Of a DNA stretch of 46,440 bases, positions 18,969 through 46,440 are shown one piece after another. Source of the DNA: Patescibacteria group bacterium (GTDB lineage Bacteria; Patescibacteriota; Microgenomatia; UBA1400; PJMF01); contig JAHIVK010000041.1 in assembly GCA_018816385.1 (NCBI GenBank), forward strand, positions 1-46,440. Reading direction: 5' to 3'. A program made the position numbers and the translations under genes. The notes under the pieces are model-generated. The model made no database searches, was not told the origin of the DNA, and saw nothing but the letters and a program-made list of their open reading frames with translations. Position 1 is the first letter of the stretch; each line of letters begins with the position of its first letter.

Positions 18969-18989
18969 TAGTCATTAAAAAATCCGAGC

Positions 18990-20302: not shown

Positions 20303-20310
20303 TCAAAGCT

Positions 20311-24324: not shown

Positions 24325-24442
24325 TACTCATTGCCCACTAAGATTTTTCAATTGACCAAAGAGTAAATAAACTCAAGTATCTCTGTTTATCTAACACCAG
24401 TATTTTTATCTTGCCGACAAAATGAATCTATTAATTACGTGA

Positions 24443-24769: not shown

Positions 24770-24791
24770 TGATACTTACTTAGTCTATCCA

Positions 24792-26654: not shown

Positions 26655-26945
26655 TCGGTAAACTTGATATATTTATGAAACTTAATAAATTGGCAATTTG
26701 CTCAGGCGTTCACTCCATCAATAAACTCAAAAAGGCGCGCTTTGTTGAGACGTTCGCTCCAGATACGTTTTGGCTCAAAGACTGTGAGCTCACTCAATTC
26801 GTTCAACTCCAAACTAATAGCTGAACTTAGTTTTGATATGTTGAACTCATATGCTCTACAAATCGCGCTTTTTTCGTTTATCTATAGTACTCGCAAAACA
26901 AGTTTAGTGAATCGGTAACGACTTGGTAGAGCGTGGAAGAGGCGT

Positions 26946-28112: not shown

Positions 28113-29876
28113 ATGAAACGATTATTAACCATTTCGTTAATTTTTTTGGTTGGTTTTGTTGTCACCATGCAACTGGCTAATTGGTCACCGGTTTTGGCTC
28201 AAACAGCTCCCTCGCCTCCCTTACCTCCTGGCGCCTTGCCCGATGATACGGCCGATGTTTATGGCTTTAAGTTCACCGAAGAAGAACAGGCCTCTTATTT
28301 TGACGCCGTCCAAAATTGTGACACACCATCACTCGAGTGTTTGGTGCATCATGTGACTCGCTTTTCTGCCATGGAGTGGATTTACAATATTTTGGGCACT
28401 GAACATCGAACATCTTTGGGAGCTGATGCTGGCTCTACTGGCACTCCCCAAGTCGCCCAAGCAGGCGGAGGCATTATTGGGGGCTTAGGATATTTAATGG
28501 GTGTCATGTACGCCAATCCCGTGGCCAGTTCCACAACTTATGTGGCTGATGTGTTAAATTCAGCTCATATTGCCACCCCCGCTTACGCTCAAGGCTTAGG
28601 TTTTGCTTCTTTAGACCCCATTTTGCCTCTCTGGAAAAACTTTAGGAATCTAGCTTATTTATTCTTTGTGGTGATTTTTATTGTCATCGGCTTCATGATT
28701 ATGTTTAGATCAAAAATTGGCGGTCAAACTGCAGTTACAGCTCAACAGGCTATTCCTCAAGTGGTTATCTCACTGTTGTTTGTAACCTTTAGCTATGCAG
28801 TGGCTGGTTTACTGATTGATGCTATGTATATTGTGATGATTTTGCTACTTGGTATTTTTGGTGAAACGTTTGGAGAAGGCAATTCCAACATCTTAAGTTA
28901 TAACATCCTAAACTTGTTTGGTGTGCTCTGGAAAGCTGGACCAGCCAATATAGGTCGAAACATGGACATTGCCGGTACATTCCTTGAGGGATTTGCTGGT
29001 GATACCGGAGCTGTGGGTACGGTTTTGGGCTTCCTAACTGGTTTAATGTTAACTTTGCTTTTGGCAGTAGCGGTTTTAATTGGCTCAGTCCGACTCTTTT
29101 TTGAACTGCTCAAGTCCTATGCATCAATCGTTCTAAGTGTGGTGACTTCACCCATTATTCTGATGACGGGAGCTATTCCAGGCAAAAATGTGTTTGTGCC
29201 TTGGGTTAAAGACTTAATTGGCAACTTACTACCCTTCCCTACAGTCTTGCTGGTGGTAATTATGTTTTATCAATTCACCGCTATGGGCTCTAGAACCCAG
29301 GGTGGTTTTAACCCACCATTTTTACTCAACAATTCGGACACCGGAGCCTTAAGTGCCTTGATGGGTTTAGCCATCATTCTGTCTCTGCCGGATATTGTGA
29401 AAAAAATCAAAGAGCCATTAGTCAATAAGGATGGATTGGGTCTATGGTTAGCCAGTACTGCTGGTAAAAATCTTGGTCGTAGCGCTGATTATGGCTTACC
29501 TTTTGCCACATCTATTGGGGGCACAGTTGGAAGTGGCGCACTTGGTGCCGGAGCCCACTTACTTAATCGACAGGAACCGAAAACTTGGAGAAGCATCAAG
29601 GATGCTGCTCTCAGAGGATCTGCTGTCAAGGACAGAGAGGGTAATATTTTAAGTTACAGAGGTGGCGCATTAAGCCAAGGAGATGATAGAAGTAAGGGTG
29701 GACTATCTCGTGGCTGGCAAACTGGGCAAAATATGCGAAAAACTATTGATGATATTCGAGATGGCAGACTCTTTCAACCTGATAATACAAGAAGGCTATT
29801 GGAGAGAATTGCTGGAGGTAAAGAGAAAGATGAAACACCTTCACCAGGTTCCGGCAATCCACCAGCCTCATCTTAG
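28113..29876 (+). CDS. VirB6/TrbL-like polytopic membrane protein of the T4SS-like apparatus
   Basis: A signal peptide is followed by about 7-8 hydrophobic helices across 587 aa and a hydrophilic C-terminal tail. The call rests on size, topology and context within a VirB4/PrgI/pilin cluster. Confidence 0.5.
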   Translation: MKRLLTISLIFLVGFVVTMQLANWSPVLAQTAPSPPLPPGALPDDTADVYGFKFTEEEQASYFDAVQNCDTPSLECLVHHVTRFSAMEWIYNILGTEHRTSLGADAGSTGTPQVAQAGGGIIGGLGYLMGVMYANPVASSTTYVADVLNSAHIATPAYAQGLGFASLDPILPLWKNFRNLAYLFFVVIFIVIGFMIMFRSKIGGQTAVTAQQAIPQVVISLLFVTFSYAVAGLLIDAMYIVMILLLGIFGETFGEGNSNILSYNILNLFGVLWKAGPANIGRNMDIAGTFLEGFAGDTGAVGTVLGFLTGLMLTLLLAVAVLIGSVRLFFELLKSYASIVLSVVTSPIILMTGAIPGKNVFVPWVKDLIGNLLPFPTVLLVVIMFYQFTAMGSRTQGGFNPPFLLNNSDTGALSALMGLAIILSLPDIVKKIKEPLVNKDGLGLWLASTAGKNLGRSADYGLPFATSIGGTVGSGALGAGAHLLNRQEPKTWRSIKDAALRGSAVKDREGNILSYRGGALSQGDDRSKGGLSRGWQTGQNMRKTIDDIRDGRLFQPDNTRRLLERIAGGKEKDETPSPGSGNPPASS

Positions 29877-32443
29877 TGGCTGTCCTTGCCTCCCTGTTCA
29901 TCAATTCGTACCATTGATTTCACCCTGCTAACTCCAGGGTCAGGAATTGCCACTAAACCGTCTACAATCTTTCTGTATTTTTTATATTCTTCTTGCGTTT
30001 GCCCAGCTGGTAACAAATGAGATATGACTGGAGCCGGAATGCTCATTTTCTTTTCCTTATAAATACAATCTGCATATATTTTTCTATTACCTCTTCTTAA
30101 ATATTTAGGATCTTTGAAACAATCGCCCATTCTCGTTCCATTTGTACCATTGGAAATAGCTCTGATAGCTCCATCAATTTGGTCTGTAAACGATTCTAAG
30201 CCTCCTCCCGACTTATATGTACCTCTTAGTCTCTCAACTATCTCCTTATGAATGTAGGTCTTTCTTTGTTCACTTACGGCCAAGCGAGCGATAACTCTAA
30301 GTAAAAACCAAGTCAAAAGAGGTTGGAGTGCTTTCTGATGATTTCCTGGAAACAACTTCATTCTATCGGGTCCACCTTTAACAAAGGTATCAAGCAATCC
30401 CATTTCTTTGCCATCATCGCCTTTGGCATAGCTTTCAAACAACATTTCTTCTGTAATTTTTTGAGGCAAATCACCCAAAACTAACAACAACATGTCTTTC
30501 CATGCCGAAAGAGCTAACTGATAATTGTCAGTTGTCCAAACTGACTTAATTTCATCACCATCACCAGGATCGGTTTCAGGACCTCTGTATTTTCCCCTTG
30601 TGGTCACAGTTCCCAATTCTTGATACTCTCCTGCTCGGTTAAATCCCCAAACCTCATTGCCAAAAACCAGCATTTCTCCTTTTTGTAAAGTTAAAAAGCC
30701 GAACGTATCTGGGAAAGTTGGTTCCAAAATTGATGAAGGGGGAATACCATTTGCCTCACCACTAAACGAATCGGTAGGATAATAACACTCTTGCTGAAGT
30801 TTGAGTTTATCTCGAATTTTTTCCAGTTGTTTATGATATTCTGGTTGCCCATTTCTACCATAATTTCTTGGAACTTCTGATTGAACAACTAGCCACCATG
30901 CAGACCAATCACTTAAAATATTATACCTCTGTATTCTGTGAACCGTAGCAGCATCAGGACGTGAAAGCCAAATCCAATCATCTTCTTTGACTGTCGTGCC
31001 GTGGATGCGAGTTGTCGTTTGGGTTTGTCGTTCAGCCAATGACACCGAAAGCAAATCAAAGAGTAAGAAAAGGTTGAGGGTTAATTTTAGTATCCGATCA
31101 ATTTTCTTGCCTCTTTCATCTTCATTGAGATCTTGATACAAATTTAACATCATTGTATTTCTATAGTGATCACTAATATAATTATCTATTAATGAGCGAC
31201 CCTCGCCAGAACCACAAAGATATTCATAATTTTTTCTGTCGTATTTTGAAAATTCCCTATTTTTTTTGTCTGCAACTTTTTCTATGATTTCTTGTAAAAT
31301 TTTTCTAACGTATTCACCATAGATCGGATGAAAAGTTGTGACCTGAAGCAATTGCTCTCTTTCAAGTTTTCGATGACTCCTGCCTTCTTTTCCGGTCAGT
31401 TCTGGAAAAAGCTTGCTGTGAACACAGCTTGGAACTTGACCCTCTTCTTCGTTGATTTCTTTCGCCCAATGAACCTGAGCGTATACCCACCATTCCAATT
31501 TGTACTGCCTCACCTCAGAAGTGTCTCTTGAATTGACACCAAATCTGTTATGAAACTCTGTCCAAAGATCTCTACGATACTGAGATCCGCCTGGATCAAC
31601 GTAAACAGTACTAGTAGCTGCGGGATCTACTCCCTGCCTCATCATTTCTTCAACCAAATCTTCATCAGAAAGATCGTCTATGTTTCTCTCTGCATTGCGA
31701 TTTATATCTGGTGGCGGCGCTATTGGCGGAGCTTGAGGAGGCTGAGGAATCTGTGGAGCCTGAAGTCTAGCTCTTAGAGCTCTAATTATTACTAGTATTC
31801 TATCTCTAGTTGTAGCATCCAGGGTTTGAAATTCAGCTCTTCTTTGACGAACTAATTGTTCTAGTTCATCTTTAGCTGATTCTGGACTAAAAAAACCACT
31901 GTCAAGACTGATTCTAATATTTTCAAGTTCTTGTTCAAAATCTGGACCAGTGGGAGGTTCGGCTTCCACAGGTGGCGCAGGTGGCTCGGGTGGTGGAGGA
32001 GGTCCGCCACCGGTTGGATCTGGCGAGTTTACAACGGGTGGGGCTACTATATCTGGTGGCGGAGGTGTGTTTCCTGAACCAGCGCCCGTCTTGCTTTTAA
32101 TTTCTCGATTAACTCTGTCCACAGTATTCTGCACAGCTACTCTTAATCTAGTTACGTCGTTACCCGTTGTTACGCTCAACGAAGTCAACATTTCAAGATC
32201 TAAAGTAATATTTAAAATTTTATCTTCAATATCGTCTAAATAGTCTTGAGGTAATTCACCCACATGAGCTTTGATATAAGGAATAACCTTGTTTATAAAC
32301 TCACCCATGACAGTAGATATTTTTGGAATTAAAGCAATAATTTCTCGATTAGCTGCACTTCTATCGTCAGCGCTTGGCTCTCTACCTCCTGTTGAAGATG
32401 GCGGAGTGGCATCGGGTTGACCTGACGGATTTCTTTCACTCAT
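29873..32443 (-). CDS. Large cytoplasmic orphan protein with Pro-rich linkers; the only long opposite-strand gene inside the T4SS-like block
   Basis: 856 aa with no signal peptide or TM. It has PPPPPEPPAPP and PQIPQPPQAPPIAPPP tracts. I recognise no catalytic motif. Most of the gene is visibly more AT-rich than its neighbours. The 3' end overlaps the VirB6-like gene by 4 nt (convergent). Confidence 0.6.
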   Translation of the reverse strand: MSERNPSGQPDATPPSSTGGREPSADDRSAANREIIALIPKISTVMGEFINKVIPYIKAHVGELPQDYLDDIEDKILNITLDLEMLTSLSVTTGNDVTRLRVAVQNTVDRVNREIKSKTGAGSGNTPPPPDIVAPPVVNSPDPTGGGPPPPPEPPAPPVEAEPPTGPDFEQELENIRISLDSGFFSPESAKDELEQLVRQRRAEFQTLDATTRDRILVIIRALRARLQAPQIPQPPQAPPIAPPPDINRNAERNIDDLSDEDLVEEMMRQGVDPAATSTVYVDPGGSQYRRDLWTEFHNRFGVNSRDTSEVRQYKLEWWVYAQVHWAKEINEEEGQVPSCVHSKLFPELTGKEGRSHRKLEREQLLQVTTFHPIYGEYVRKILQEIIEKVADKKNREFSKYDRKNYEYLCGSGEGRSLIDNYISDHYRNTMMLNLYQDLNEDERGKKIDRILKLTLNLFLLFDLLSVSLAERQTQTTTRIHGTTVKEDDWIWLSRPDAATVHRIQRYNILSDWSAWWLVVQSEVPRNYGRNGQPEYHKQLEKIRDKLKLQQECYYPTDSFSGEANGIPPSSILEPTFPDTFGFLTLQKGEMLVFGNEVWGFNRAGEYQELGTVTTRGKYRGPETDPGDGDEIKSVWTTDNYQLALSAWKDMLLLVLGDLPQKITEEMLFESYAKGDDGKEMGLLDTFVKGGPDRMKLFPGNHQKALQPLLTWFLLRVIARLAVSEQRKTYIHKEIVERLRGTYKSGGGLESFTDQIDGAIRAISNGTNGTRMGDCFKDPKYLRRGNRKIYADCIYKEKKMSIPAPVISHLLPAGQTQEEYKKYRKIVDGLVAIPDPGVSRVKSMVRIDEQGGKDSH

Positions 32444-32512
32444 AAGTCAGTGCAAATTATATCACCCTGATCTGAATCCGCATAGAATTGCTTCAAAAAT
32501 TTAGACTAATTT

Positions 32513-35500
32513 TTGGCTGGTCTTCCCGCTATAATAAGAGTTGTGGCAAATGATTATTTCCAACCTCCAGATGGGTCGGACGATTCTGGCGTGCAGACGG
32601 CGGGCGGTCCGCCCGCTTTTGGTTTAGGCGATCAAGCCTCGACTACAGACGGTGGTCCATCTCCCTTGCCCACAACCGTTCAAGAGCCACCGGTCATGGG
32701 TGAGCAAAACCCAGATCCAAGTGGCAATCCACCCAAATTTATTGGAGCCAACCTTTCTCAAATCAAAGACATCAAGCAACTCAATCTCCAAGATTTTAAT
32801 GCCGATCAGCTGGGGGAATTTTTGCTGACAGTTGACCACATCTTTGATCCCAAGTTAGGTTTAAGACACGACCAAACTGCCATTTTTAAAACCATTAGAC
32901 AGGGTCAAAAATCATTTTTGATTTTTGACCCCAAAAACCCCCAACCAGCCCAAAAAAATCGGGATAGTTATTTATTCCCCAGCGACTTAGCTAGATTTCT
33001 AATTCAAACAGCAGAGAAAACCCAACTCCTAGTTTTGGCTATTGAAGCACCCAATCCCCCAACCGGCTTAACTCAATATCAAACCCAAAACTGGCAGTAC
33101 TACGTCCGTCAGTGGGGTCATACTTTAGAAGTCAAACAAGAGTCTGATGATGATGTAGTTGATGAGCTGAGTCTTCTATCTTCAGTTTCTTTGAGCCAAC
33201 AAGAAACTTTAATCAATTTACTCAATCAGGCATACAGCTTTATTCAAGGTCGGCAGGCCGAGGTCAAAGCTGGCAAAACTGGAGATGCAGAAATTGTCAT
33301 TAAAAAACCCACTTCCGACGCCATTATTGGCGGTGGTAAAACCAGCCATGGTCCGGGCAAACCTGCATCAGAAGAAACGGGTGAAGCTGGTGCAGAAACT
33401 CAAACTCAAGACACTACTCCCGCCAGCGAGACTGTAAAAACCGCGGATGCCACGGTCAAACGCCAACTGACAAAAGTTGTGTCTTATGAAACCGCCTGGG
33501 TCTACAATCGCCTGCTGTTTGAACTTTTTACCAAGCAGGGTATTGATCCGGATCAAGTTGACCCTTTGCTACTCAGTGGGCTGTATCGGTCTGCCAGCCA
33601 TGAGTTGTGGAAGCAAACTCCCTCTGAACTAGCCCGACTCTTTGCCAGTCCTAGCGCTAGACAAGTCGCACTGCAGTTGGTCTATGAAGCCATTGCTCAG
33701 GATCCTAAATTGACGTCGCTGATTTACTTCACATATACTCAATTTAAAGCTAATCAGACCTTGAATTTGGATGTTGATCTGGATGATTTTGAGGCTGATG
33801 TACCTGTCAACTTTGACCAACAGCTTGAAGACGAGCTCCTGAATGCTGAAGATTCACCAGACAAAGTATTTGAAGTCCAGTTGGATGAACTACTCAGACA
33901 AGTTGGCGGTGTTTCGGACAATTTATCTCCCGATGTTAATCCCCTAATTATCAATGCCAAAGATCAAGTCGAATTTCTGTTGAGAACCTTTGGTGTCAGC
34001 CCTAAAGACTTAGTTCCAGACCGAGTTTTTAAACCAGATGTAGCAGTAGAGGCAGTCGAGTTAACCAGAGCCTTAGCCGTGATTGATAGTTTAAGCATTA
34101 GACAGCTTTGGCAAACTATCTTCCCCCAGCTGGACGTTAAAAAAATTGCTGGCGTTGATATAGAGCGCAAAAGACTAGAAATAGACGCCCGGTTTGCTCC
34201 GTTTAAAATCAAGCTCCAAGCTTTGATTAAAAGTTATTTAAAAGTCAGAGCCTCAGAGTTGAGTCTGGAAAACCAAACCTGGCAAGCCGATCAAGTTCCA
34301 GTTCCAGAAGAAGTGGCGGAAGAGGTGGTTAAAGAAGCCGAAGCCCAACCCAAGCTGCCCCCCCACACCTTGGGTCAACTAAATTTTATCTCTTTGAGTT
34401 CCAACTCCAGAGCTCAAGAGGAAGAAGATGAAATAAACTCCAAGCGTAGTCCTAGACTGAGCAGAAGAGGTGGAGAGAAAGATGCAGAGGAAGACACCGG
34501 GGGTCGTCAAAAAAGAAGCGGTCACGGTTTTGATATTAATCACAAAAAATTAGCTGGTTACATTGCTCAATATCAAAGAGCTTGGGAGTTTTTACCCTTT
34601 TATGTCAAGCTGGTGGCTTATGAAAAATCTGGACTGTTAGATACCACGCCACTGCCCAAAAGCTACACTAAGGAAAAATTGCTGGAGCTAACTGCTCCTC
34701 AACTGGATGAATTAATCCGTCAGCAGGGTGATTTTTTAGTCTTTCATGAAGCCGTCTTCTTTAGGGCTCCGCTGGAAGGTGTGATGGCGGAGGCCAGGAA
34801 ACTTTCTAGACGAAACAGGGATGACAAAGGGGTACGCGAGGATGACATAGTTAGCCCTCAAGCCCAAACAGCCATCAGAGAGGCAGAAATAGCTCGGGGA
34901 GATTTTGTGTTGGCCATGGCCAAAGAGCAAGAATTTGAAGCGGAAAGACAGGCCAGAGTTCAGACCTATATCAAACAACTGGGCGCTCAAAGACGGGCGC
35001 AAATTCTGGCAGTGGCCAAAGCTCAAGTTGTGGCTCAAATTCAAGAGCAACAAGCGACCATTCAAGCTCACCGAGTGGCTTTGATGATATATCTGGCTGA
35101 AACCGGTCAACAACTGGCCGAAATCGAAGCCATGGAGTTTGAAGCTCAATATCAAGAACTGGTGAGTCAACAACAAGCCACGGACGGGGCAGAGTTAGGT
35201 GACCTTTCCATTAATGACATTGTGTCTGCTGATGCGGGTTTAGACGCCAGTCAAGGTTCTCAAAAACTATCTTTGGGTGAACGCCTGCGCAGAAAAGGGG
35301 CTGGTTCAGCCAATGCTAGAGCTCAAAAAATGATGGCGCAAGTAGCCCAAAAAAAGATGGGTGAGGAAGTGGCGCTCAAAATGCTGTCTCAAGCTGGCTG
35401 GCAAGGCAAGGCGGCAGCTTTCGCCATTAAGCATCGCAAAAAAATTGCGACTATTTGGGGCGGAACCATTGGTGGTTTGACCGCCTTCATTCTTGGCCAG

Positions 35501-37117
35501 ATCATGAAATACGGCAAGGTGGCTTTGAATGGAGCCATCGCCGGTGGTTTGGGAGGTGGTATTGGTGGAGCTATTTTGGGTGCCAAAGCTGGAGCTTTTG
35601 TGGGGGCATTTTTTGGAGGCATTGGGGCTCCGATTGGGGCTGTGATTGGTGGGGTTGTGGGCGGTATTACTGGCTTGGCGGCTGGCGGAGCTTTAGGTGC
35701 ATTTGGAGCTGTCAAAATAGCTCAAGCTGGTGGTATCTCAATTGGTCCGCCGCTCAAATCGGCCATCCAAACCGTGGGTCAAGCCATTAATCCATCCTCA
35801 CCCAGTGTTCTACCTCAAACCGGATCGGCTATTGATCCATCAGCTACATCGTCAGAAATGCTGGGCAGAACTGGTGGTGAATCAACTACTCAGGCCGGCA
35901 ACACTTTGTCTCAAACTGGTGCCACTCCAGCCCAAGCAGGTTCAACTTCAATTCAAACTGGTACCACTCCAGCTCAAGTCAGCGCCTACAATCAGGCCCT
36001 GCGAGCCAGTGCCACCAATTCTCTGGCTTCATCGCTGGCCGAGGCGGCGGCTAAAGCCCAAGCCGCAGGAGCTTGGGCAGTGGGCAGTGGCATTGCGGTC
36101 AGTTCAACTTTAATTATGGTTGGTTTAATGGTCATGACTTCCGTCTACACCATGTACGTGATTTTTTCTGCTTTTTTAGTCCCCTTGCCCGTGGGTAATT
36201 CCGGCGATAGAAATACATCAGAATCCAAGTACTTAAGCTTAACCAAAGTCGCCAGCCCGACTCAACTGGAAAACAGTCCCAGTGACACCACCATTACCTA
36301 TACAGTGACTGTCAAGCCCAAGCCAGGCTACATTATAGAAATTACCGAACTGTCCGATACTTTTTCATATCAATCTGGAGCTGAAGTCAACTCTCCACCA
36401 ACTCGCAATCCCAACCTGTCTCCCCTCACCATTGGTGACATTATTTTTGACCCGACCGTAGCTGATCCAGCCGACTATGACCCCATGATCAGTCAAATTA
36501 AAATCACTCAATATGAGGTCACACTATCTGGAGGTACCAACACTCAAGTTCAGAATCAACTGTCCATCACTTTTAATGCCTACGCCGCCAACGACCCAAC
36601 TGCCAAAGTGGCCACCGAAACCCAAACTACCATGGCGACCGTTAACATTGGCGATCCTCAAGTTAACTGCTGGCCGGTCTCAGGCACTATTACTCAATTA
36701 CCGTGGGGGAGTTTTTCTCACTCCAATTCTGATGCTTATGACATTGCCGCCCCCATTGGTTCAGATGTCAGAGCTCCTTTTGCTGGAACGCTGTTACCTG
36801 CTAACGTCAACAAAACTACTTATGGCCCCTACCCTGTCTACCTACGCTTTGATGTAAATGGACAAGCGCGAACGCTATTGTTTGGTCACTTAGTGTCTGC
36901 CAATGTTAATTCAACTAATACTGCTGGCATCAGCGTCAGTGTTGGAGATATGATTGGTCAAGTTGGCAACGGAGGTAGTTCGACCGGGCCTCATCTTCAT
37001 TACGCCTTAGTCGGCAGTAGTAAAATTGGCTCTGGTCTTAAACTTAAAGACTTGATTCCTGTCCGAGATGTGAATATTGCTATTGGCGCATCCATATATA
37101 CTTGTTTAAATAGGTAA
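32513..37117 (+). CDS. Giant PrgK-like T4SS cell-wall hydrolase: cytoplasmic coiled-coil region, glycine-zipper/TM segments, beta-rich domain, C-terminal M23 (LytM) peptidase
   Basis: The C-terminus has HSNSDAYDIAAPIGSDV (HxxxD) and GNGGSSTGPHLHYAL (HxH), the M23 signature. GGLGGGIGGAILGAKAGAFVGAFFGGIGAPIGAVIGGVVGGITGLAAGGALGAFG is a glycine zipper. A TM follows (IMVGLMVMTSVYTMYVIFSAFLV). The start is uncertain: TTG 32513 or GTG 32543. Confidence 0.7.
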   Translation: MAGLPAIIRVVANDYFQPPDGSDDSGVQTAGGPPAFGLGDQASTTDGGPSPLPTTVQEPPVMGEQNPDPSGNPPKFIGANLSQIKDIKQLNLQDFNADQLGEFLLTVDHIFDPKLGLRHDQTAIFKTIRQGQKSFLIFDPKNPQPAQKNRDSYLFPSDLARFLIQTAEKTQLLVLAIEAPNPPTGLTQYQTQNWQYYVRQWGHTLEVKQESDDDVVDELSLLSSVSLSQQETLINLLNQAYSFIQGRQAEVKAGKTGDAEIVIKKPTSDAIIGGGKTSHGPGKPASEETGEAGAETQTQDTTPASETVKTADATVKRQLTKVVSYETAWVYNRLLFELFTKQGIDPDQVDPLLLSGLYRSASHELWKQTPSELARLFASPSARQVALQLVYEAIAQDPKLTSLIYFTYTQFKANQTLNLDVDLDDFEADVPVNFDQQLEDELLNAEDSPDKVFEVQLDELLRQVGGVSDNLSPDVNPLIINAKDQVEFLLRTFGVSPKDLVPDRVFKPDVAVEAVELTRALAVIDSLSIRQLWQTIFPQLDVKKIAGVDIERKRLEIDARFAPFKIKLQALIKSYLKVRASELSLENQTWQADQVPVPEEVAEEVVKEAEAQPKLPPHTLGQLNFISLSSNSRAQEEEDEINSKRSPRLSRRGGEKDAEEDTGGRQKRSGHGFDINHKKLAGYIAQYQRAWEFLPFYVKLVAYEKSGLLDTTPLPKSYTKEKLLELTAPQLDELIRQQGDFLVFHEAVFFRAPLEGVMAEARKLSRRNRDDKGVREDDIVSPQAQTAIREAEIARGDFVLAMAKEQEFEAERQARVQTYIKQLGAQRRAQILAVAKAQVVAQIQEQQATIQAHRVALMIYLAETGQQLAEIEAMEFEAQYQELVSQQQATDGAELGDLSINDIVSADAGLDASQGSQKLSLGERLRRKGAGSANARAQKMMAQVAQKKMGEEVALKMLSQAGWQGKAAAFAIKHRKKIATIWGGTIGGLTAFILGQIMKYGKVALNGAIAGGLGGGIGGAILGAKAGAFVGAFFGGIGAPIGAVIGGVVGGITGLAAGGALGAFGAVKIAQAGGISIGPPLKSAIQTVGQAINPSSPSVLPQTGSAIDPSATSSEMLGRTGGESTTQAGNTLSQTGATPAQAGSTSIQTGTTPAQVSAYNQALRASATNSLASSLAEAAAKAQAAGAWAVGSGIAVSSTLIMVGLMVMTSVYTMYVIFSAFLVPLPVGNSGDRNTSESKYLSLTKVASPTQLENSPSDTTITYTVTVKPKPGYIIEITELSDTFSYQSGAEVNSPPTRNPNLSPLTIGDIIFDPTVADPADYDPMISQIKITQYEVTLSGGTNTQVQNQLSITFNAYAANDPTAKVATETQTTMATVNIGDPQVNCWPVSGTITQLPWGSFSHSNSDAYDIAAPIGSDVRAPFAGTLLPANVNKTTYGPYPVYLRFDVNGQARTLLFGHLVSANVNSTNTAGISVSVGDMIGQVGNGGSSTGPHLHYALVGSSKIGSGLKLKDLIPVRDVNIAIGASIYTCLNR

Positions 37118-37119
37118 CA

Positions 37120-38067
37120 ATGAAAATCAAACTGACCAAGTGGCAAAAATTTTCCTTCTGGCTGATACTGGCCACCATCATTGGTTTGGTCTTCAAATCC
37201 CTAACTCCCCAGTCAACCCCCGAGTCAAACCCTCAACTGGCTAGCGTGGGCGGGGTCCAAACTCAAGTCAAGCAACTGAGTTATCAAGGACTTGAGCCAA
37301 CTATTCCAGAAAAATTAAGCGCTGGCCAAGCCACTCTCATTAAGACTGATGGATTGTTGGCTATGCTTTTAGATAAGTTTAGTTTGTCTGTTAATTTAGA
37401 CAGCCCCAATCTTTGGGTGGGAGACGAGTACTCACTCTTTTTTGACAAAGTCCAAAGTATCTATGGCTTGAGCTTAAACTTGCCTCAGCCTGTTTCTGCT
37501 CAACTCAATTCAGCCGAGTTATCCAGTCAAGCTGAACAGTTAGTAAGTCAGCTTTTACCTCAAACAAACTTGGTGATTGATCAAACAAAAACCAGATACT
37601 TAACTGGTCAATATCAACAAAAAGAAGTGGCTGAAAGTTTGGCTGAATATATGGAGTTGTCCTTCTTTCAAAAGTTTCAAGATTTCCCTGTCTACAACCA
37701 AGCCTCTCTTCGCCCCTCAGTCTTAGTATTAATGGATGCCAATGGCCAAATCACTAAATTGGAGGTGTCAACCCAACTATTTACTATTGCCCCGCCCAGC
37801 GATCAAACGCCAATTAGCCTTGATCGGGCTCAAGCCAATATTGAGCAAGGCAATGCCAGTTTGCTTGACCTGGAAACAAACAGTCTACAAACTATTGATC
37901 GATCCAAGTTTGCGTCAGGCCAACTCTACGAAGTTCAAATTGAGTACAGGGTGGACAAACAACTGTTAGTCAAACCCTTTTATCGATTTTCCGGCAATTT
38001 AGTGACCACGGGTGGTCAAACAGTTCAAGCTGAAATTATTACTCCCTCTACCCTGGATTCCCCCTAG
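37120..38067 (+). CDS. Membrane-anchored hypothetical protein (bitopic); T4SS-associated by position
   Basis: An N-terminal TM (FSFWLILATIIGLVF) is followed by a ~280-aa soluble domain. The start is 2 nt after the giant gene's stop. The last codons and the stop lie inside a GC-rich repeat unit (38055-). Confidence 0.5.
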   Translation: MKIKLTKWQKFSFWLILATIIGLVFKSLTPQSTPESNPQLASVGGVQTQVKQLSYQGLEPTIPEKLSAGQATLIKTDGLLAMLLDKFSLSVNLDSPNLWVGDEYSLFFDKVQSIYGLSLNLPQPVSAQLNSAELSSQAEQLVSQLLPQTNLVIDQTKTRYLTGQYQQKEVAESLAEYMELSFFQKFQDFPVYNQASLRPSVLVLMDANGQITKLEVSTQLFTIAPPSDQTPISLDRAQANIEQGNASLLDLETNSLQTIDRSKFASGQLYEVQIEYRVDKQLLVKPFYRFSGNLVTTGGQTVQAEIITPSTLDSP

Positions 38068-38136
38068 CGCGGGAATGACAAGTGGCGCGGGAAAGACATG
38101 GACACTGTCATTCTTCGACCGCAGGGAGGAGAATCC
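38055..38136. repeat. GC-rich palindromic hairpin units overlapping the 3' end of CDS 37120-38067
   Basis: GGATTCCCCCTAGCGCGGGAATGAC ... GTCATTCTTCGACCGCAGGGAGGAGAATCC. The stop codon TAG at 38065-38067 is inside the first unit. Confidence 0.8.
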
Positions 38137-38400
38137 ATTAAATTCCTGTGTGTTTTAAATGCATCAAACTTCTTGAGAAATAATGGAAACGATAAAATGG
38201 CAATTGTCCTAGGATGACATAAGTTTAAGTTTTTATTTCGAAAGAAGTTTGATGCATTTCATAGACAAACGCTTTCCACAGTGTTTAAATAATTGACGAT
38301 TTGGTCTGTCGATCAGGTAATAAAATCTGCTAGAATGAGTTTGTCATTAAGCTTGCAGTAAAGTTCAACAGCTTTGCTGTGGATTATATGTAGACTGCCC

Positions 38401-39540
38401 ATGAGAGAACATCCCATTCCCCAAGACATCACTGGTTACCGCTTCCATATTGTGGGTAATATGACCCTCAAGCAATTTGCTGAGGTCGGCGCGGGTTGTA
38501 TCGTGGCCATTATCTTATATAAGACTGGACTACCGGATTTCATCAAGTGGCCAATGGTGGTTTTTTCCTTTGGTTTAGGAGCACTGGCAGCTTTTGTACC
38601 CATCGAAGAAAGACCAATTGACCATTGGATTGCAACGTTCATCAGCATTATGTATAAACCTACTCAGTATTTTTGGAAAAGAATACCATTTATTCCCTCA
38701 GCTTTTGCTTATCAAACCGAAACTGTAACTCAACCACTGCCCGCCGAAGTTGACCTGTCTCCAGCGCGTCGCCATCGGGTCAAAGAGTTTATGGCTTCAA
38801 TTCAAGCCGTTGGTTTCAATCGATACGACCTTGACCAATCAGAAAAAGCCCAAATTGGCGCCATATTAAATTTATTTGGTCAAACCCAAGTGGTTGTTAA
38901 CCAGACTAAACCCAAGGTGGTGAAACCTCAGCTTGACGTCAGAGTCCGAAAACTGGGCAAGCTTGATCGATCGCGCCATAGTTCGGACAAAATGTTTGAG
39001 GCCGCCATCATTATGGATCAATCCGACAAAAAGCGCCAAGCCAAACCCAAAAAAGCCGGCATGACCACTAGCCAAATTGCCAAGCAAATTACCATCCCAA
39101 TCACCCCCAATCTTGATATTGAAGCCGAACCGATCAGTGATGAAGAGCTAGCCATCTCTCATCGTCAAGCGGATGATGGAGACAGAGCTTACATTCAAAA
39201 TCAACCTCAAGATCAACTTGATACCAATCAAGCCAAGTCGGCTCTTTTCAATGCCAGCCTACCATTTCCCACCGCCCCCACCGAACCCAACAAATTGGTT
39301 GGCATGGTGCTGACTCCTCGCAACGAATTAATTCCTGGAGCGATTATTGAAGTTAAAACTTTAGATGGCCATACGACTCGAGCAGTTAAATCAAACGCCT
39401 TGGGCCAATTCTACGTGACCACCCCATTGAAAAATGGTCAATACGTAGTGGAAATTGAAAAAGATGGCTTTAAATTTGAACCGCAGAAACTTGAAGTGGC
39501 GGGTAAAAATCTTCAACCAATGGAGGTGAGAAGTGTTTAA
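38401..39540 (+). CDS. PrgI-family (VirB3-like) membrane protein fused to a C-terminal carboxypeptidase-regulatory-like beta-sandwich
   Basis: MREHPIPQDITGYRFHIVGNMTLKQFAEVGAGCIVAIILY plus a second TM fits the PrgI pattern. The C-terminus is GMVLTPRNELIPGAIIEVKTLDGHTTRAVKSNALGQFYVTTPLKNGQYVVEIEKDGF. I prefer ATG 38401 over the upstream TTG 38374. Confidence 0.65.
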   Translation: MREHPIPQDITGYRFHIVGNMTLKQFAEVGAGCIVAIILYKTGLPDFIKWPMVVFSFGLGALAAFVPIEERPIDHWIATFISIMYKPTQYFWKRIPFIPSAFAYQTETVTQPLPAEVDLSPARRHRVKEFMASIQAVGFNRYDLDQSEKAQIGAILNLFGQTQVVVNQTKPKVVKPQLDVRVRKLGKLDRSRHSSDKMFEAAIIMDQSDKKRQAKPKKAGMTTSQIAKQITIPITPNLDIEAEPISDEELAISHRQADDGDRAYIQNQPQDQLDTNQAKSALFNASLPFPTAPTEPNKLVGMVLTPRNELIPGAIIEVKTLDGHTTRAVKSNALGQFYVTTPLKNGQYVVEIEKDGFKFEPQKLEVAGKNLQPMEVRSV

Positions 39541-39600
39541 TCTTCGTCTCAATTGCGCCAACCCAGCTCCAATTGCGCTACCCCTGTCAACTCAGGTAAG

Positions 39601-40983
39601 ATGGAATGGATTGATCGCAACATGAAAAACACCACATCAGACTCCACCACTCAGCAATTTTTAGATATCTACAACATCACTAATGACATCGTGATTATGA
39701 AAGATGGTTCGGTGTCCATGTTGTTGACAGTTGATGCCATGAATTTTGGTTTACTGGCCGAAGAGGAACAAGACGCCGTCATGTATGCTTACGCCGGACT
39801 TTTAAACTCCCTAAATTATCCAATTCAAGTGGTGATTAGTTCTCACACCAAAGACGTGACTAAGTACTTAGATTTGCTCAAATCTCAAGAGGAGCAAACT
39901 AGTAATCAGTTAATGAGGCAGAGGATCAAAACCTATCGTCAATTTGTGGCCAATTTAATTAAAGAGCGCAACGTGTTGGACAAAAAGTTTTATGTGGCCA
40001 TTCCGGCCAGTGGGCTAGAACTAGGGTTTATTTCTGCTAAATCATTTGTGCCTGGTCAACAAGGCGGATTTGATATTGGCACTATTGAAACAAATGTGAT
40101 CGTCGAAAAAGCTCACAACCTGCTGGAGCCCAGGCGAGATCACCTCATCACTCAATTTGCCAGAATCGGTCTTTATGCCAAGCAACTCACCACTCAAGAA
40201 ATTATTCAGCTGTTTTACATCAGCTACAATCCAGAAGCCGCCGAAGGTCAACTAATTGCCGATAGTAATAATTACACTAGTCCTTTAGTAACTGCTAGTA
40301 TAGAGAAAGATTTTATGCTCAATGCCACCCCCTCTTCCCAAGGTACAAATGTTGGAACCGGATCCAGTCCTACGCCTGCGACTATTGATCAGACACAGGA
40401 GGTTGTCGATCAAACACCCGCTTCAACCCCGCCCAGCCCTATCCCAACTCCATCGATTGAGACTCCCACCGCCGATCTCCCAACTGCCAATCCTTTTTCT
40501 CAACCCCCAACTTCCTCAATTCCAGTTGGTTCAACTCCTCAGGATGCAGGCTTAGATTTGCCACCCCAAGCCATGCCACCTGCTCCCCAATTACCAACTA
40601 CTCCCACACCTCCAGCGGAAATGAGCAGTCCAATTGCGCCTCCAACGCCCATGTCTCCAGATTTCCCAATCAGCGCGCCCGATCCACTCGTGACCACGCC
40701 GTTACCCGCAACCCCCACTCCACCACCAATCACGGACGCTGGTGTCCAAGCAGAAATTAACCAAGTGGTTGACCAATTTAATGTGGCTCCGGATGTGACG
40801 ATACCCACTGCCCCATCAGAATCAAGCAACCAATCAGAACCAATCAATGTGGCAGAAGTTCCCGCTGTAGACAGTCAGATTGCCGACCAAAAAATTGGAC
40901 AGGTCAGTGCTCAACCGCCAGTAGTAGAAAAACCGGCATCAGGAATGGCGCAAAGCACTCCGCCACCCATTCCCGAGCTCTAA
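39601..40983 (+). CDS. VirB4 N-terminal-domain-like protein lacking the ATPase, with a ~200-aa Pro/Thr/Ser-rich tail
   Basis: FLDIYNITNDIVIMKDGSVSMLLTVDAMNFGLLAEEEQDAVMYAYAGLLNSLNYPIQVVISSHTKDVTKYL parallels the N-domain of the following VirB4 (IQDIIAPEAIEVDF...YTRTLFVAGYP...WLSPLINFPHQVSIAMFMYP). There is no Walker motif. I prefer ATG 39601 over TTG 39553. Confidence 0.55.
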   Translation: MEWIDRNMKNTTSDSTTQQFLDIYNITNDIVIMKDGSVSMLLTVDAMNFGLLAEEEQDAVMYAYAGLLNSLNYPIQVVISSHTKDVTKYLDLLKSQEEQTSNQLMRQRIKTYRQFVANLIKERNVLDKKFYVAIPASGLELGFISAKSFVPGQQGGFDIGTIETNVIVEKAHNLLEPRRDHLITQFARIGLYAKQLTTQEIIQLFYISYNPEAAEGQLIADSNNYTSPLVTASIEKDFMLNATPSSQGTNVGTGSSPTPATIDQTQEVVDQTPASTPPSPIPTPSIETPTADLPTANPFSQPPTSSIPVGSTPQDAGLDLPPQAMPPAPQLPTTPTPPAEMSSPIAPPTPMSPDFPISAPDPLVTTPLPATPTPPPITDAGVQAEINQVVDQFNVAPDVTIPTAPSESSNQSEPINVAEVPAVDSQIADQKIGQVSAQPPVVEKPASGMAQSTPPPIPEL

Positions 40984-40998
40984 ACACATAACGTAGCC

Positions 40999-43053
40999 AT
41001 GCCCAACTTACTTAATAAGCTACCATTTTTCCCCAAAAAACCTGACCCAACTCAGGTGACTCCGGAAGAACTTAGGCAACAAAAAGAGCTGGAGAAGGTT
41101 AAGGAATTTTCTAGGGGCTTGGTCACCATTCAAGACATTATCGCCCCCGAAGCTATTGAAGTTGATTTTACTTTTCAGAAAATTAATTCAACTTATACTC
41201 GAACTCTATTTGTGGCCGGTTACCCCAGAAGTGTGCCGGCTAACTGGCTGTCACCCCTGATCAACTTCCCCCATCAGGTCTCGATCGCCATGTTCATGTA
41301 CCCAACCGATTCAACAGAAATTCTCAACAACCTCAAGCGCAAAATTACCGAGATGGAGGCCGAAATTCAGTCCGATTTAAGGGCGGGCAAAATCAGCAAT
41401 ATCAACACCGAGGTCAAATTGGAAGATGCCCGCTACATCAGAGAGGATTTGGCCAAAGGTGCGGAGCGCTTTTTCCAGTTTGGGCTATACATAACTATTC
41501 AGGCCAAAGATAAGGACGAGCTAGACAAGGTCACTCAAGCCATTCAATCAAGTTTGGGAGCGCTCCTGATTGTTTCCAAAAAAGCCACTCTCCAAATGGA
41601 TGAGGGCTTCAAAACCACCCTGCCCATGGGTATCGACAAACTCTTGATCACTCGCAACATGGACACCACCAGTTTGGCCACCACTTTTCCTTTTACTTCT
41701 TCCGAACTGACCATGGAGTCGGGCATTATGTATGGCATCAACGAACATAATGACTCATTGGTAATTTTTGATCGCTTTAAGATGGAAAACGCCAACATGG
41801 TCATTTTTGCCAAATCTGGAGCCGGTAAATCCTATGCTGTGAAATTGGAAATTCTCCGCCAACTCATGTTTGGTGTAGAAATTATTGTCATGGATGCTGA
41901 ACGCGAGTATGAAGAATTAACCAAAGCTGTGGGTGGTCAATACATTAACTTCACTTTTGGTTCGGATGCCAAAATCAATCCTTTTGATTTATCAACAGTT
42001 TACGAAGAGGGAGAAAATGAGTTGGGTCAAAAAATCATCTCCATTCATGGCTTATTAAAAGTCATGTTGGGTCAGATGACTCCCCAACAAGAAGCTATGC
42101 TGGATCGATCTTTGGTAGCCACGTATAAGGCCAAAGGCATTACGCCCGACCCCGCCAGCCAAACTAATATCGCCCCTCTAATGGAAGATTTGTATAAAGC
42201 TTTAATTGGTATGGAAAATGATGAAGCAGATGATGTGGCCGCTCGACTAGAAAAATTCATTACTGGCTCGTTTAGAGGCATCTTTGATCAAGCCTCAAAC
42301 ATCAATATTCAAAGTCAACTAACCATTTTTTCTGTTAAAGAAATGGAAGAAGGCATGCGACCCATTGCTATGTATGTAATTCTGGATTTCATTTGGACTA
42401 GAATTAAAAAGGATTTAAAGAAGCGAATTTTGGTCATTGATGAGGCGTGGTACTTTATGAAGCACCCCGATTCGGCATCCTTTATTCACTCTATGGTCAA
42501 GAGAGCTCGTAAATACTTTTTAGGCATTACCACTATCACTCAAGACGTGGAAGATTTCCTTCACAACGACTACGGCAAAGCCATTGTTACCAACTCCTCA
42601 ATCCAACTATTAATGAAACAATCAACTGCCTCAATTCCAGTTTTGGCCGAAACATTTTATTTGTCTCAAGGAGAGCGTCAGTTATTAGTCACTTCTGATA
42701 TTGGCGAGGGCATCTTTTTTGCTGGCCAAAATCACGTAGCCCTCAGAGTGGTGGCTAGTGACGAAGAACACCAATTGATTACCACCGATCCAGAAGAATT
42801 AGTTAGGCGCAAACAAGAGCAACAAGCAGAATTAGAGCTGGTTCAACCAATTGCTCCCCCGATCATGCCTCCAACCAATTTGCCCGAATCGCCAGAGTCG
42901 CCCAATTCGCCCGAATCGCCCATAGAAACTGATGACCCACCAGCCGATCAAAGCCACAATCAAAGCTCGGGTTTAGATCTCGATGCCCAACCCGCTCGCT
43001 ATATAAATTCAGCCACTATTGACGACTACCAACCACCCTCGGGTCAAAAATGA
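40999..43053 (+). CDS. VirB4/TrsE/PrgJ-family T4SS ATPase
   Basis: Walker A is FAKSGAGKSYAVK and Walker B is RILVIDEAWYFM, followed by GITTITQDVEDF and typical N-domain. The C-terminal Pro-rich tail contains a 9-bp tandem repeat (42883-42921, PESPESPNSPESP). Confidence 0.9.
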   Translation: MPNLLNKLPFFPKKPDPTQVTPEELRQQKELEKVKEFSRGLVTIQDIIAPEAIEVDFTFQKINSTYTRTLFVAGYPRSVPANWLSPLINFPHQVSIAMFMYPTDSTEILNNLKRKITEMEAEIQSDLRAGKISNINTEVKLEDARYIREDLAKGAERFFQFGLYITIQAKDKDELDKVTQAIQSSLGALLIVSKKATLQMDEGFKTTLPMGIDKLLITRNMDTTSLATTFPFTSSELTMESGIMYGINEHNDSLVIFDRFKMENANMVIFAKSGAGKSYAVKLEILRQLMFGVEIIVMDAEREYEELTKAVGGQYINFTFGSDAKINPFDLSTVYEEGENELGQKIISIHGLLKVMLGQMTPQQEAMLDRSLVATYKAKGITPDPASQTNIAPLMEDLYKALIGMENDEADDVAARLEKFITGSFRGIFDQASNINIQSQLTIFSVKEMEEGMRPIAMYVILDFIWTRIKKDLKKRILVIDEAWYFMKHPDSASFIHSMVKRARKYFLGITTITQDVEDFLHNDYGKAIVTNSSIQLLMKQSTASIPVLAETFYLSQGERQLLVTSDIGEGIFFAGQNHVALRVVASDEEHQLITTDPEELVRRKQEQQAELELVQPIAPPIMPPTNLPESPESPNSPESPIETDDPPADQSHNQSSGLDLDAQPARYINSATIDDYQPPSGQK

Positions 43054-43132: not shown

Positions 43133-43200
43133 GTCATCCTCGCGCAACGGGGAATGACAATTCGCCCGTCATCCTCCCCGCCCAGGCGGGGGGGGGATCC
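43133..43200. repeat. Two GC-rich palindromic hairpin units immediately upstream of dnaA
   Basis: GTCATCCTCGCGCAACGGGGAATGAC and GTCATCCTCCCCGCCCAGGCGGGGGGGGGATCC. The second includes a 9-G run at 43188-43196. Confidence 0.85.
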
Positions 43201-45012: not shown

Positions 45013-45114
45013 GTCATTCTCCGACCGCAGGGAGGGGAATCTAGGAGTAACCACTCGCTACTGGACCCCCACCGCCTGGGCGGGGAGGATGACGGATGAA
45101 ATCGCGAGGATGAC
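45013..45114. repeat. GC-rich palindromic hairpin units upstream of dnaN
   Basis: GTCATTCTCCGACCGCAGGGAGGGGAATC; GGACCCCCACCGCCTGGGCGGGGAGGATGAC; ...CGCGAGGATGAC. Confidence 0.85.
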
Positions 45115-46264: not shown

Positions 46265-46300
46265 GCTCCTTGCTAAATAATGACATCGCTGGGAGGGGAA

Positions 46301-46438
46301 TAGACTTGTCGCGAAATAAGAAATGAGTTAATTATGGATAGATTTTATAGCATTTTCGTTGATTCTGATGACGATAGTAGCCAATGCTGGTTGAGGAAGA
46401 ACCAGCAAAGAAAATGCATAAAAGATGCCATAAGTAGC
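46301..46438. repeat. Right arm of the perfect 138-bp inverted repeat (partner 1-138); begins with a full leader cassette at 46301-46336
   Basis: Exact reverse complement of 1-138. It is preceded by a partial GC-rich unit (46279-46300). Confidence 0.9.
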
Positions 46439-46440
46439 CA
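46334..46440 (+). CDS. Partial small ORF identical to the one at 1-105 (minus); runs off the window
   Basis: ATG at 46334-46336 is supplied by the cassette. The translation MDRFYSIFVDSDDDSSQCWLRKNQQRKCIKDAISS is identical to the left-edge copy. Confidence 0.3.
   Translation, partial: MDRFYSIFVDSDDDSSQCWLRKNQQRKCIKDAISS

Follow-up and report, generated by a model that had tools for sequence, protein, structure and literature searches.

A type IV secretion locus, very probably of the Patescibacteria clade and fixed in the chromosome beside dnaA, on a Microgenomatia contig

A long, mostly plus-strand block of genes (positions 13391–43053) lies directly upstream of dnaA and dnaN on contig JAHIVK010000041.1 (assembly GCA_018816385.1) of a Patescibacteria group bacterium, and the question raised by this locus is what kind of machine it encodes and whether it is a mobile element or a fixed part of the chromosome. 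The window, i.e., the whole stretch of DNA that was analysed, is 46,440 nucleotides long and comprises the entire contig. A sequence-only reading of this window, made without database searches, had described the core of a type IV secretion system (T4SS) with no recognisable coupling protein, relaxase or integrase, and had favoured a chromosomally fixed pilus or secretion machine over a self-transmissible conjugative element. Every open reading frame (ORF) named in that reading was found at its given coordinates in the ORF listing. The analysis reported here indicates that the block is very probably a Patescibacteria-clade T4SS, i.e., a vertically inherited chromosomal system that derives from the conjugation apparatus of monoderms (MPF_FATA) and sits beside the replication origin. 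The coordinates of all features are collected in Table 1.

The assignment starts from the motor region at the right end of the block. The VirB4 ATPase scores highest against the NCBIfam model conju_CD1110, with 378 bits against a cut-off of 325 over model positions 177–734 of 752, ahead of the VirB4 of Mycoplasma integrative and conjugative elements (ICEs; 259 bits), the F-type TraC (188 bits) and the generic VirB4_CagE (119 bits), and it is also matched by the Pfam families TraG P-loop, AAA_10 and CagE_TrbE_VirB. Both its Walker A (AKSGAGKS) and its Walker B (DEAW) motif are intact, and residues 42–556 align with residues 222–751 of PrgJ from plasmid pCF10 (E 3e-33). By these comparisons, the protein is placed closest to the VirB4 of the MPF_FATA type. 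At 684 amino acids (aa), it does not include the N-terminal 180–220 residues of a canonical VirB4. A free-standing equivalent of this missing domain (aa ~25–235), followed by a Pro/Thr/Ser-rich tail that is predicted to be disordered, is carried by the TrsD/TraC-like protein encoded directly upstream, a gene overlooked by the sequence-only reading, whose matches are VirB4_plasma (positions 95–283, E 2.6e-8), TrsD (NF041427, E 3e-4), positions 2–109 of CD1110 and, as a precomputed assignment, the TraC-like family PF26593. Since the VirB4 N-domain is absent from VirB4 and present on the adjacent TrsD-like gene, VirB4 function is split over two neighbouring genes. The next gene upstream encodes a PrgI/VirB3-like membrane protein (PF12666, E 3.1e-7, 31.3 bits against a cut-off of 27), the C-terminus of which is a CarboxypepD_reg/PEGA-like β-sandwich (PF13620, E 1.4e-7; E 2.9e-8 when the C-terminus is taken alone).

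At the left end of the block, eleven tandem genes encode VirB2-like pilins. PF18895 was found in all of them, with E values from 7e-11 to 3e-4, four exceeding the cut-off of 26.6 bits, and a transmembrane (TM) scan places two C-terminal hydrophobic helices in each protein. The pilin domains share a mean pairwise identity of ~30% (maximum 54%), and the first two pilins (410 and 344 aa) are extended at their N-termini by long stretches. For published arrays, the survey of 3,035 genomes by Quinonero-Coronel et al. (Microbial Genomics 2025, PMC12102498) gives a count of 441, with 2–11 genes each, a mean identity of 25% and a maximum of 54%. The T4SS core with pilins, a PrgI-like protein and VirB4 that had been proposed from the letters is thus borne out by PF18895 (11 genes), PF12666 and conju_CD1110.

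The setting of this core in other genomes was then compared. One genome per species (GTDB representatives) was scanned for VirB4 relatives, which gave 435 loci; the best 80, with VirB4 identities of 69–85%, were kept, and neighbours were counted within 10 kb of virB4. Directly downstream of virB4 lies dnaA in 77 of the 80 loci, and dnaN (69/80), the adjacent TrsD-like gene (75/80), prgI (71/80), the gene for the giant M23 protein (48/80) and that for the 315-aa protein (42/80) are further neighbours. The modal order, i.e., giant M23, 315-aa, PrgI, TrsD, VirB4, dnaA and dnaN, was found in 30 loci and always on one strand. Homologues of the VirB6-like and 856-aa proteins led to the upstream half, which has the same architecture in five further loci: pilins, a 930–1420-aa protein, a 280–350-aa protein on the opposite strand, the VirB6-like protein, an 880–1440-aa protein on the opposite strand and the giant protein. 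Within these five, sequence homology was found for the 348-aa protein in four and for the 856-aa protein in three. In the window itself, the virB4 stop and the dnaA start are separated by 164 bp, and both replication genes are identified by Pfam (Bac_DnaA, E 1.6e-65, for dnaA; three DNA_pol3_beta domains for dnaN). By their record labels, the 80 loci belong mostly to Patescibacteria, Pacebacteria, Woesebacteria and Microgenomates or carry placeholder names, with a few TM6 and Limisphaerales. Many locus-bearing metagenome-assembled genomes (MAGs) are titled "uncultured Pseudomonadales bacterium", and others TM6 (CP011212.1) or Limisphaerales; these titles (loci L008–L087) look like placeholders or wrong labels.

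The sole repeat that flanks the block is a 39-nt direct repeat at 13204 and 46363. As a pair of attachment (att) sites it was rejected, because it is part of a dispersed element that occurs four times, in both orientations, and because it also encloses dnaA and dnaN; the block therefore has no att-like flanks. The conserved gene order, the dnaA junction and a flanking repeat that is not an att site together argue that the block is an old, vertically inherited chromosomal feature and not an ICE.

Genes for mobility were searched for at several levels. Pfam and NCBIfam scans found no type IV coupling protein (T4CP), relaxase, integrase, resolvase or transposase family in the main ORFs, and tblastn with the coupling protein PcfC and the relaxase PcfG, both taken from the annotated plasmid pCF10, gave no match in the window or in the 80 related loci. 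Similarly, no ComEC, relaxase or T4CP was found in the window or, in the 80 relatives, up to 10 kb from virB4, and a tRNA search of the window found none. A six-frame Walker A scan of the 46 kb gave only VirB4, DnaA and RecF as genuine P-loop ATPases, and the statement that there is no second Walker-type ATPase of the VirD4 or VirB11 kind thus holds. The other Walker A matches lie in frames that are short or broken by stops, or within the 1152-aa and 1534-aa proteins, where such strings were dismissed as chance because these regions have no P-loop family match. The 856-aa and 1534-aa families, in which the sequence-only reading had allowed for hidden T4CP and relaxase domains, are likewise free of them (30 members of each), as described below. 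The conjugative-element reading fails: T4CP, relaxase and integrase are missing from the window, and the block is present at the same dnaA junction in 77 of the 80 relatives. With this conserved junction and no mobility genes, the earlier preference for a chromosomally fixed machine over a self-transmissible element is upheld, and the co-occurrence of the gene order in relatives, which had been proposed as a check, is found.

The junction with dnaA also bears on how the operon is placed relative to replication. In all 77 relatives with dnaA, the T4SS core operon lies upstream of dnaA, is co-directional with it and points toward it. To the left of dnaA the GC skew is below zero in 50 of 52 loci, and to its right it is above zero in 39 of 52, values to which gene-strand composition effects may contribute. 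Because the GC skew switches sign at dnaA and the operon points toward dnaA, it is suggested that oriC is located close to dnaA/dnaN and that transcription of the T4SS operon runs head-on against replication. DnaA boxes are not enriched across the window (11 found, 13 expected), and a loose cluster of three one-mismatch boxes lies in the dnaA–dnaN spacer. In Southlakia epibionticum, for which Wang et al. (Cell 2023, PMC10633639) reported an essential T4SS cluster, SEML1_0006–0019, next to dnaA, dnaN and recF, the gene table gives the same relation between operon and replication, mirrored on the other side of dnaA.

The envelope proteins of the block were assigned with differing certainty. The 587-aa protein has an N-terminal signal or TM segment and at least six TM segments, and its family has 583 homologues at E <= 0.001 in a word-index search, with no Pfam domain among the 120 matches listed. 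For the protein itself, no Pfam, NCBIfam or PDB-sequence family match was obtained, and hhalign against PrgH was negative. An AlphaFold2 (AF2) model built from 45 sequences has a mean predicted local distance difference test (pLDDT) score of 69, and its top five PDB fold matches are all TrwI/VirB6 of the R388 T4SS, each of them weak (probability 0.75–0.99, E 0.017–0.23, target TM-score 0.30–0.43). A VirB6-like protein, and hence a candidate channel subunit, is likely but not proven; the earlier VirB6-like label is carried by the polytopic topology and the weak fold match, and a sequence family that would support it was not found.

The 1534-aa giant protein has no signal peptide. Its N-terminal ~1000 aa are charged, cytoplasmic-looking and predicted to form coiled coils, and are followed by a glycine-rich TM block (~aa 985–1075), a second TM segment (~aa 1190–1225) and an extracytoplasmic C-terminus with Peptidase_M23 (PF01551) at aa 1407–1499 (E 1.2e-10), including HxxxD and HxH motifs. 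When the family profile was compared with the PDB, M23 peptidases alone were convincing (down to E 5e-21), and M23 is present in 24 of 30 scanned family members, with no other recurrent domain. The protein had been called PrgK-like; the wall peptidase is real, but no SLT or CHAP domain of the PrgK/CwlT type was found in the 30 members and blastp against PrgK gave E 0.49. Judged from its domains, it is a putative wall-cutting and scaffold component, VirB1- or PrgK-like in function and outside the PrgK family. The neighbouring 315-aa protein has one TM segment at aa 11–29 and an extracytoplasmic domain of ~285 aa. A profile of 36 family sequences found no VirB8, TcpC, TraM or PrgL chain in the PDB at E <= 10; the protein has no Pfam family, and single profile comparisons with PrgL and PrgD of pCF10 gave no match. 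Thus, the bitopic topology and the position that had placed it at VirB8 stand, and a relation to VirB8, PrgL or PrgD was not found in these profile searches. Because comparisons with these families were negative or without matches, the giant protein is not filed as PrgK and the 315-aa protein is not filed as VirB8.

A second hydrolase is encoded further to the left. The 620-aa protein, which has no signal peptide, carries a muramidase-like SLT_3 domain (PF18896, E 6.6e-10, 39.8 bits against a cut-off of 27) and is a candidate VirB1-type wall hydrolase. A lysozyme-like domain had been listed within 28113–43053; it exists, on this separate gene outside that span. Up to four wall-active functions had been counted in all, and three of them are found, i.e., M23, SLT_3 and SpoIID just outside the block. 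The fourth, a GH-A-like domain at the N-terminus of the 1152-aa protein, was seen by eye as NEP and ITETG motifs and found no Pfam, NCBIfam or PDB support. The 1152-aa protein, which has no match in Pfam, NCBIfam or the PDB over its other parts either, is probably secreted, because the TM scan finds an N-terminal hydrophobic signal-like segment, and it has homologues at the same position in four related loci (L090, L092, L095 and L096). Its C-terminal region is duplicated in the N-terminus of the 620-aa protein, which also matches inside the 1152-like genes of relatives. In addition, a DNA repeat of 121 nt (24629–24749 and 27162–27282, 79% identical), together with a similarity visible in the proteins, relates the 108-aa ORF to the 3′ end of the 348-aa gene, and the 108-aa gene is probably the remnant of a local duplication. 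The whole interval 23500–27992 has the appearance of a local segmental duplication, and relatives have the simpler order 1152-like, 348-like, VirB6-like.

Two proteins on the opposite strand were also overlooked by the sequence-only reading as conserved members of the locus. The 856-aa protein, which lacks a signal peptide, combines a proline-rich, helical (coiled-coil-like) N-terminus with a conserved all-α C-terminal domain of ~600 aa. Among 1.84 billion representatives, a full HMMER search picked up 76 relatives, which share the C-terminal domain and vary in their N-termini. The AF2 model has a mean pLDDT of 79, with values mostly above 90 in the all-α C-terminal domain, and found no fold match in the PDB or BFVD (best probabilities 0.15 and 0.21 for alignments of more than 100 columns); it is neither a RecA-like/P-loop nor an HUH fold. 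No credible Pfam domain was found in 30 family members, and hhalign against PcfC was null (probability 0.1). The family has eight invariant residues (R362, G376, G415, T478, H481, R506, E590 and K696). The gene diverges from the giant M23 gene over a shared spacer of 69 bp, and family members have the same position and orientation in L090/L091 (L090 9763–13125), L092 (9298–12765) and L095 (11888–16222). The family was always found inside this type of T4SS locus, on the opposite strand between the VirB6-like and giant M23 genes.

For the 348-aa protein, PDB matches point to a DHH-domain-like fold (4ls9, a DHH family protein, E 8.4e-5; 4py9/3w5w, E 2.4e-4). In an alignment of five family members, other residues stand in place of the DHH and DTG catalytic motifs and no DHHA1 domain is present, and for this reason the protein is probably a catalytically degenerate DHH-like protein rather than an active phosphoesterase. 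Its position and opposite orientation are kept in L090, L092, L095 and L096. It is conceivable, if unlikely, that the 856-aa and 348-aa proteins make up a cytoplasmic module specific to the lineage which, together with the 1000-aa arm of the giant protein, replaces the coupling protein by recruiting substrates, or that they are themselves T4SS cargo. The two proteins are sensible first targets for a substrate-recruitment step that would replace the coupling protein.

What the machine may do is best approached through S. epibionticum. According to Wang et al. (PMC10633639), its T4SS is like Gram-positive conjugative systems and yet has essential pilins, with no recognisable coupling or relaxase proteins, and the evidence of essentiality for epibiotic growth is transposon sequencing (Tn-seq) in this species only. 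From canonical T4SS biology and these published genetics, the following steps can be proposed. The TrsD, VirB4, PrgI and VirB6-like set would form a channel (translocon) in a single membrane, and the M23 and SLT_3 hydrolases would open the epibiont's own wall. VirB4 would extract pilins from the membrane, and these would polymerise into a filament on the cell surface for contact with the host bacterium. In this way, the machine would support host-dependent epibiotic growth via contact and/or the export of protein or other non-DNA cargo, and not via plasmid-like conjugation. Only a few envelope machines are known to be indispensable for epibiotic life in this huge radiation of mostly uncultivated bacteria, and the Patescibacteria T4SS is one of them.

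The alternative that survives best, although it is considered unlikely, is a pilus-assembly or adhesion organelle without translocated cargo, in which VirB4 only extracts and polymerises the 11 pilin variants for host attachment. VirB4 is a pilin dislocase in canonical systems, the locus contains no substrate receptor (T4CP), and the eleven pilins are divergent, two of them having large N-terminal extensions that could be adhesive. Pilin diversity has also been suggested as a possible aid in adapting to different hosts (PMC12102498). However, Patescibacteria are reported to adhere already via type IV pili (PMC12102498, PMC12857230), and Ptl and Brucella VirB are known as T4SSs that export proteins without a T4CP (PMC12102498). 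Moreover, a machine that served a pilus and nothing else would leave no obvious task for the conserved 856-aa and 348-aa proteins or for the giant protein's 1000-aa cytoplasmic domain.

More doubtful than the pilus-only alternative is a system that still moves DNA, either as an exporter with a T4CP and an unrecognised relaxase encoded elsewhere or through T4CP-independent uptake like that of Helicobacter ComB or archaeal Ced. The VirB4 is weakly similar to the DNA-import ATPases CedB (E 4.7e-17) and CedD (E 6e-7), but it reaches only 61.8 bits of the 700-bit CedB cut-off, compared with 378 bits for CD1110. The DHH-like fold of the 348-aa protein is common to the RecJ and NrnA nucleases, whereas the loss of both motifs and of DHHA1 speaks against such an activity here. 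The 856-aa family, for its part, has invariant His, Arg, Glu and Lys residues. In most Patescibacteria genomes VirD4-like genes are reported far from virB4, and in class ABY1 the locus sits with comF, recG and radA (PMC12102498), which would suit DNA movement; however, the searches for ComEC, relaxase and T4CP around virB4 were negative here and in the 80 relatives. In S. epibionticum, a distant t4cp homologue is described as non-essential while the T4SS is essential, and deletion of comEC abolishes competence and leaves viability unaffected (PMC12102498, PMC12857230).

A decayed ICE that has lost its mobility genes and is now a passenger rather than a functional core system is very improbable, for although T4SS genes without T4CP, relaxase and integrase are what such decay would leave, the GC content of the block (0.41–0.48) is slightly above that of the left flank (0.38–0.44), a toxin-antitoxin islet lies nearby and a 39-nt direct repeat brackets the block, this reading is contradicted by the synteny with dnaA in 77 of 80 species-level relatives at 69–85% VirB4 identity, which points to long-term vertical inheritance under selection, by ORFs that are all intact with their catalytic motifs kept, by the multicopy nature of a repeat that brackets dnaA/dnaN too, and by the reported essentiality of the orthologous cluster in S. 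epibionticum (PMC10633639).

The vertically inherited Patescibacteria-clade T4SS is thus preferred, and several points weigh against it. The homology to VirB6 rests on a weak fold match of a predicted model (E >= 0.017), and no VirB8-like component was identified. Membership of the VirB4 in the Patescibacteria clade is read from its nearest neighbours and its best-scoring family model, and individual genes are matched with SEML1 genes by annotation only. Other parts of the genome may encode a T4CP or relaxase, since the window is a single contig. Finally, the proposed function is extrapolated from one cultivated species of Saccharimonadia to a different class.

Table 1. Positions of the T4SS block and the replication genes that follow it
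Feature	Position	Strand	Basis or remark
11 tandem VirB2-like pilin genes	13391–20724	+	PF18895 T4SS_pilin
Pilin genes 1–6	13391–14623, 14636–15670, 15695–16060, 16068–16448, 16502–17164, 17329–17709	+	
Pilin genes 7–11	17802–18353, 18456–18968, 19080–19517, 19784–20302, 20311–20724	+	
1152-aa protein	20866–24324	+	N-terminal hydrophobic signal-like segment; kept between pilin array and VirB6-like gene in related loci
108-aa gene	24443–24769	-	paralogue of the 348-aa gene, truncated to its C-terminal part
620-aa protein	24792–26654	+	C-terminal lysozyme-like SLT_3 domain
348-aa DHH-domain-like cytoplasmic protein	26946–27992	-	PDB matches and synteny
587-aa polytopic membrane protein, VirB6-like	28113–29876	+	topology and weak fold match
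856-aa protein, orphan fold	29873–32443	-	AF2 model, family search
1534-aa giant protein with C-terminal M23 peptidase	32513–37117	+	PF01551
315-aa bitopic protein	37120–38067	+	one N-terminal TM segment
PrgI/VirB3-like membrane protein	38374–39540 (alternative start 38401)	+	PF12666
TrsD/TraC-like protein	39553–40983	+	NCBIfam VirB4_plasma, TrsD; PF26593
VirB4 ATPase	40999–43053	+	conju_CD1110
dnaA	43218–44720	+	context of chromosomal origin region directly downstream of virB4, outside the machine
dnaN	45155–46264	+	as for dnaA

The stretch as a whole, as mapped by the ORF listing and the Pfam and NCBIfam scans, consists of a left flank, the block and a right flank with dnaA and dnaN. The left flank carries housekeeping and toxin-antitoxin genes, i.e., an MFS transporter, pth, a GT2 glycosyltransferase, an ATP-dependent DNA ligase, AbiEii, Fic, an NAD(P)HX dehydratase, PIN/MazE, recF, a helix-turn-helix (HTH) protein and SpoIID. 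Within it, a toxin-antitoxin and abortive-infection islet without an integrase (5149–11397) is made up of an AbiEii gene and its partner, Fic, a PIN/MazE-like pair and a Gp49 (HigB-like)/HTH pair. In two related loci (L096, 866–1390; JGI 3300072015, 1957–2523), the genes directly upstream of the pilin array encode an ECF-type sigma factor and a NUDIX protein. Since these stand where SpoIID and recF stand here, the left border of the T4SS is variable and the right border, at dnaA, is fixed. The ECF-type sigma factor could be a dedicated regulator of the T4SS.

Some short elements recur in the window. The motif TAGACTTGTCGCGAAATAAGAAA(C/T)GAGTTAATTATG lies directly 5′ of start codons on both strands, several pilin genes included, with sites at 3118, 7567, 11333, 16451, 17296, 17772, 18436 and 46301 on the plus strand and at 82, 1456 and 7678 as the reverse complement; it is probably a promoter -10 element with a short leader and ribosome-binding site (RBS), a module typical of the genome. 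GC-rich hairpin repeats (CCCCCCGCC..GGCGGGGGG and GTCATCCTCGCGCCAGCGGGGAT) occupy intergenic spacers, including those between virB4 and dnaA and between dnaA and dnaN (140–166, 182–208, 7898–7924, 43168–43194 and 45062–45088; also 2167, 7820, 7853 and 43133), and may be terminators or a REP-like element. An Rfam scan of the window found no family at gathering score, and a promoter and terminator scan was uninformative, with counts within ~1.6 standard deviations of the shuffle mean.

The two contig ends (1–137 on the reverse strand and 46298–46440) form an exact inverted repeat of ~140 nt. It looks like an assembly overlap, because its length fits k = 141 (contig name k141_...). The repeat holds the start of a small ORF (MDRFYSIF..DDDSSQCWLRK..KDAISS), and further copies of the repeat are a diverged one at 7634–7734 (reverse strand) and a partial one at 13204–13242. 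Of the small ORF, a diverged full copy of ~50 aa lies at 7700–7551 on the reverse strand; no Rfam match was found for the family. Near-identical contigs are present in the sister MAGs GCA_043825415.1 and GCA_043826185.1 and end at the same repeat. A dispersed family of small genes or repeats is the probable reason why the contigs of this and the sister MAGs stop just past dnaN.

Among known systems, the most distant resemblance is to Bordetella Ptl, Brucella VirB, Helicobacter ComB and archaeal Ced, which are likewise chromosomal, have no coupling protein or relaxase and serve a dedicated non-conjugative task. Ptl, Brucella VirB and ComB are diderm systems of the MPF_T type and Ced is archaeal, and their kinship to the present locus is at the level of the VirB4 superfamily at most, so that the resemblance, given also the CedB score noted above, is one of functional analogy only.

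The MPF_FATA systems (Prg/Pcf of pCF10; CTn2 of the CD1110 type) are closer. In common with them, the locus has a VirB4 above the CD1110 cut-off, a PrgI family protein and membrane-anchored wall hydrolases, and no outer-membrane core. In contrast to them, it has no PcfC-type T4CP, PcfG-type relaxase or accessory relaxosome proteins, no detectable PrgL/PrgD (VirB8-like) and no PrgH homology; nor was a PrgB-like adhesin or LPXTG protein found by Pfam, NCBIfam and blastp of pCF10 PrgD–PcfG, a query set in which PrgB itself was not included. The VirB4 is split here, and VirB2-like pilins are present, which are absent from Gram-positive systems. Moreover, the locus is chromosomal, lies beside the origin and is vertically inherited.

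The closest match is the Patescibacteria-clade T4SS. In the 2025 survey (PMC12102498), 2,425 VirB4s make up a monophyletic Patescibacteria clade inside MPF_FATA; the partner seen most often is TrsD, homologues of PrgI/VirB3 and VirB6 are frequent, VirB8 is almost undetectable and M23 occurs on some VirB1-like proteins. Relaxases are reported there from 103 genomes only, T4CP homologues lie mostly far from virB4, and dnaA/dnaN are frequent neighbours in Paceibacteria and Microgenomatia. A T4SS review of the same year summarises the same points (PMC12857230). The present locus shares with this clade the MPF_FATA-affinity VirB4 with a TrsD-like gene directly upstream, PrgI, a polytopic protein that is likely to be VirB6-like, a giant protein with a terminal peptidase, a lysozyme-like protein on its own gene, tandem PF18895 pilins, a cluster without T4CP or relaxase and a location at dnaA, dnaN and recF. 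It differs from that of S. epibionticum in lineage, its nearest relatives by record labels being Pacebacteria, Woesebacteria and Microgenomates. The number of pilins is 11, at the top of the reported range of 2–11, compared with 6; the peptidase is M23 here and DD-peptidase-like there; and the VirB6-like protein is compact, with 587 aa compared with ~1000–1090 aa. In addition, the 856-aa and 348-aa cytoplasmic proteins encoded on the opposite strand go unmentioned in the accessible descriptions of published Patescibacteria T4SSs, and no description of either family was found in that part of the literature. The sequence-only reading had ranked the block as the window's best candidate for an incompletely described system. 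This is true of the mechanism only; the system itself, the missing T4CP and relaxase, the pilin arrays and the proximity to dnaA are in print (PMC10633639, PMC12102498, PMC12857230). Since these features and the conclusion drawn from them are all in the published literature, the system is already known, and the locus is a clean and complete example of it from the Microgenomates/Pacebacteria side rather than a new kind of system.

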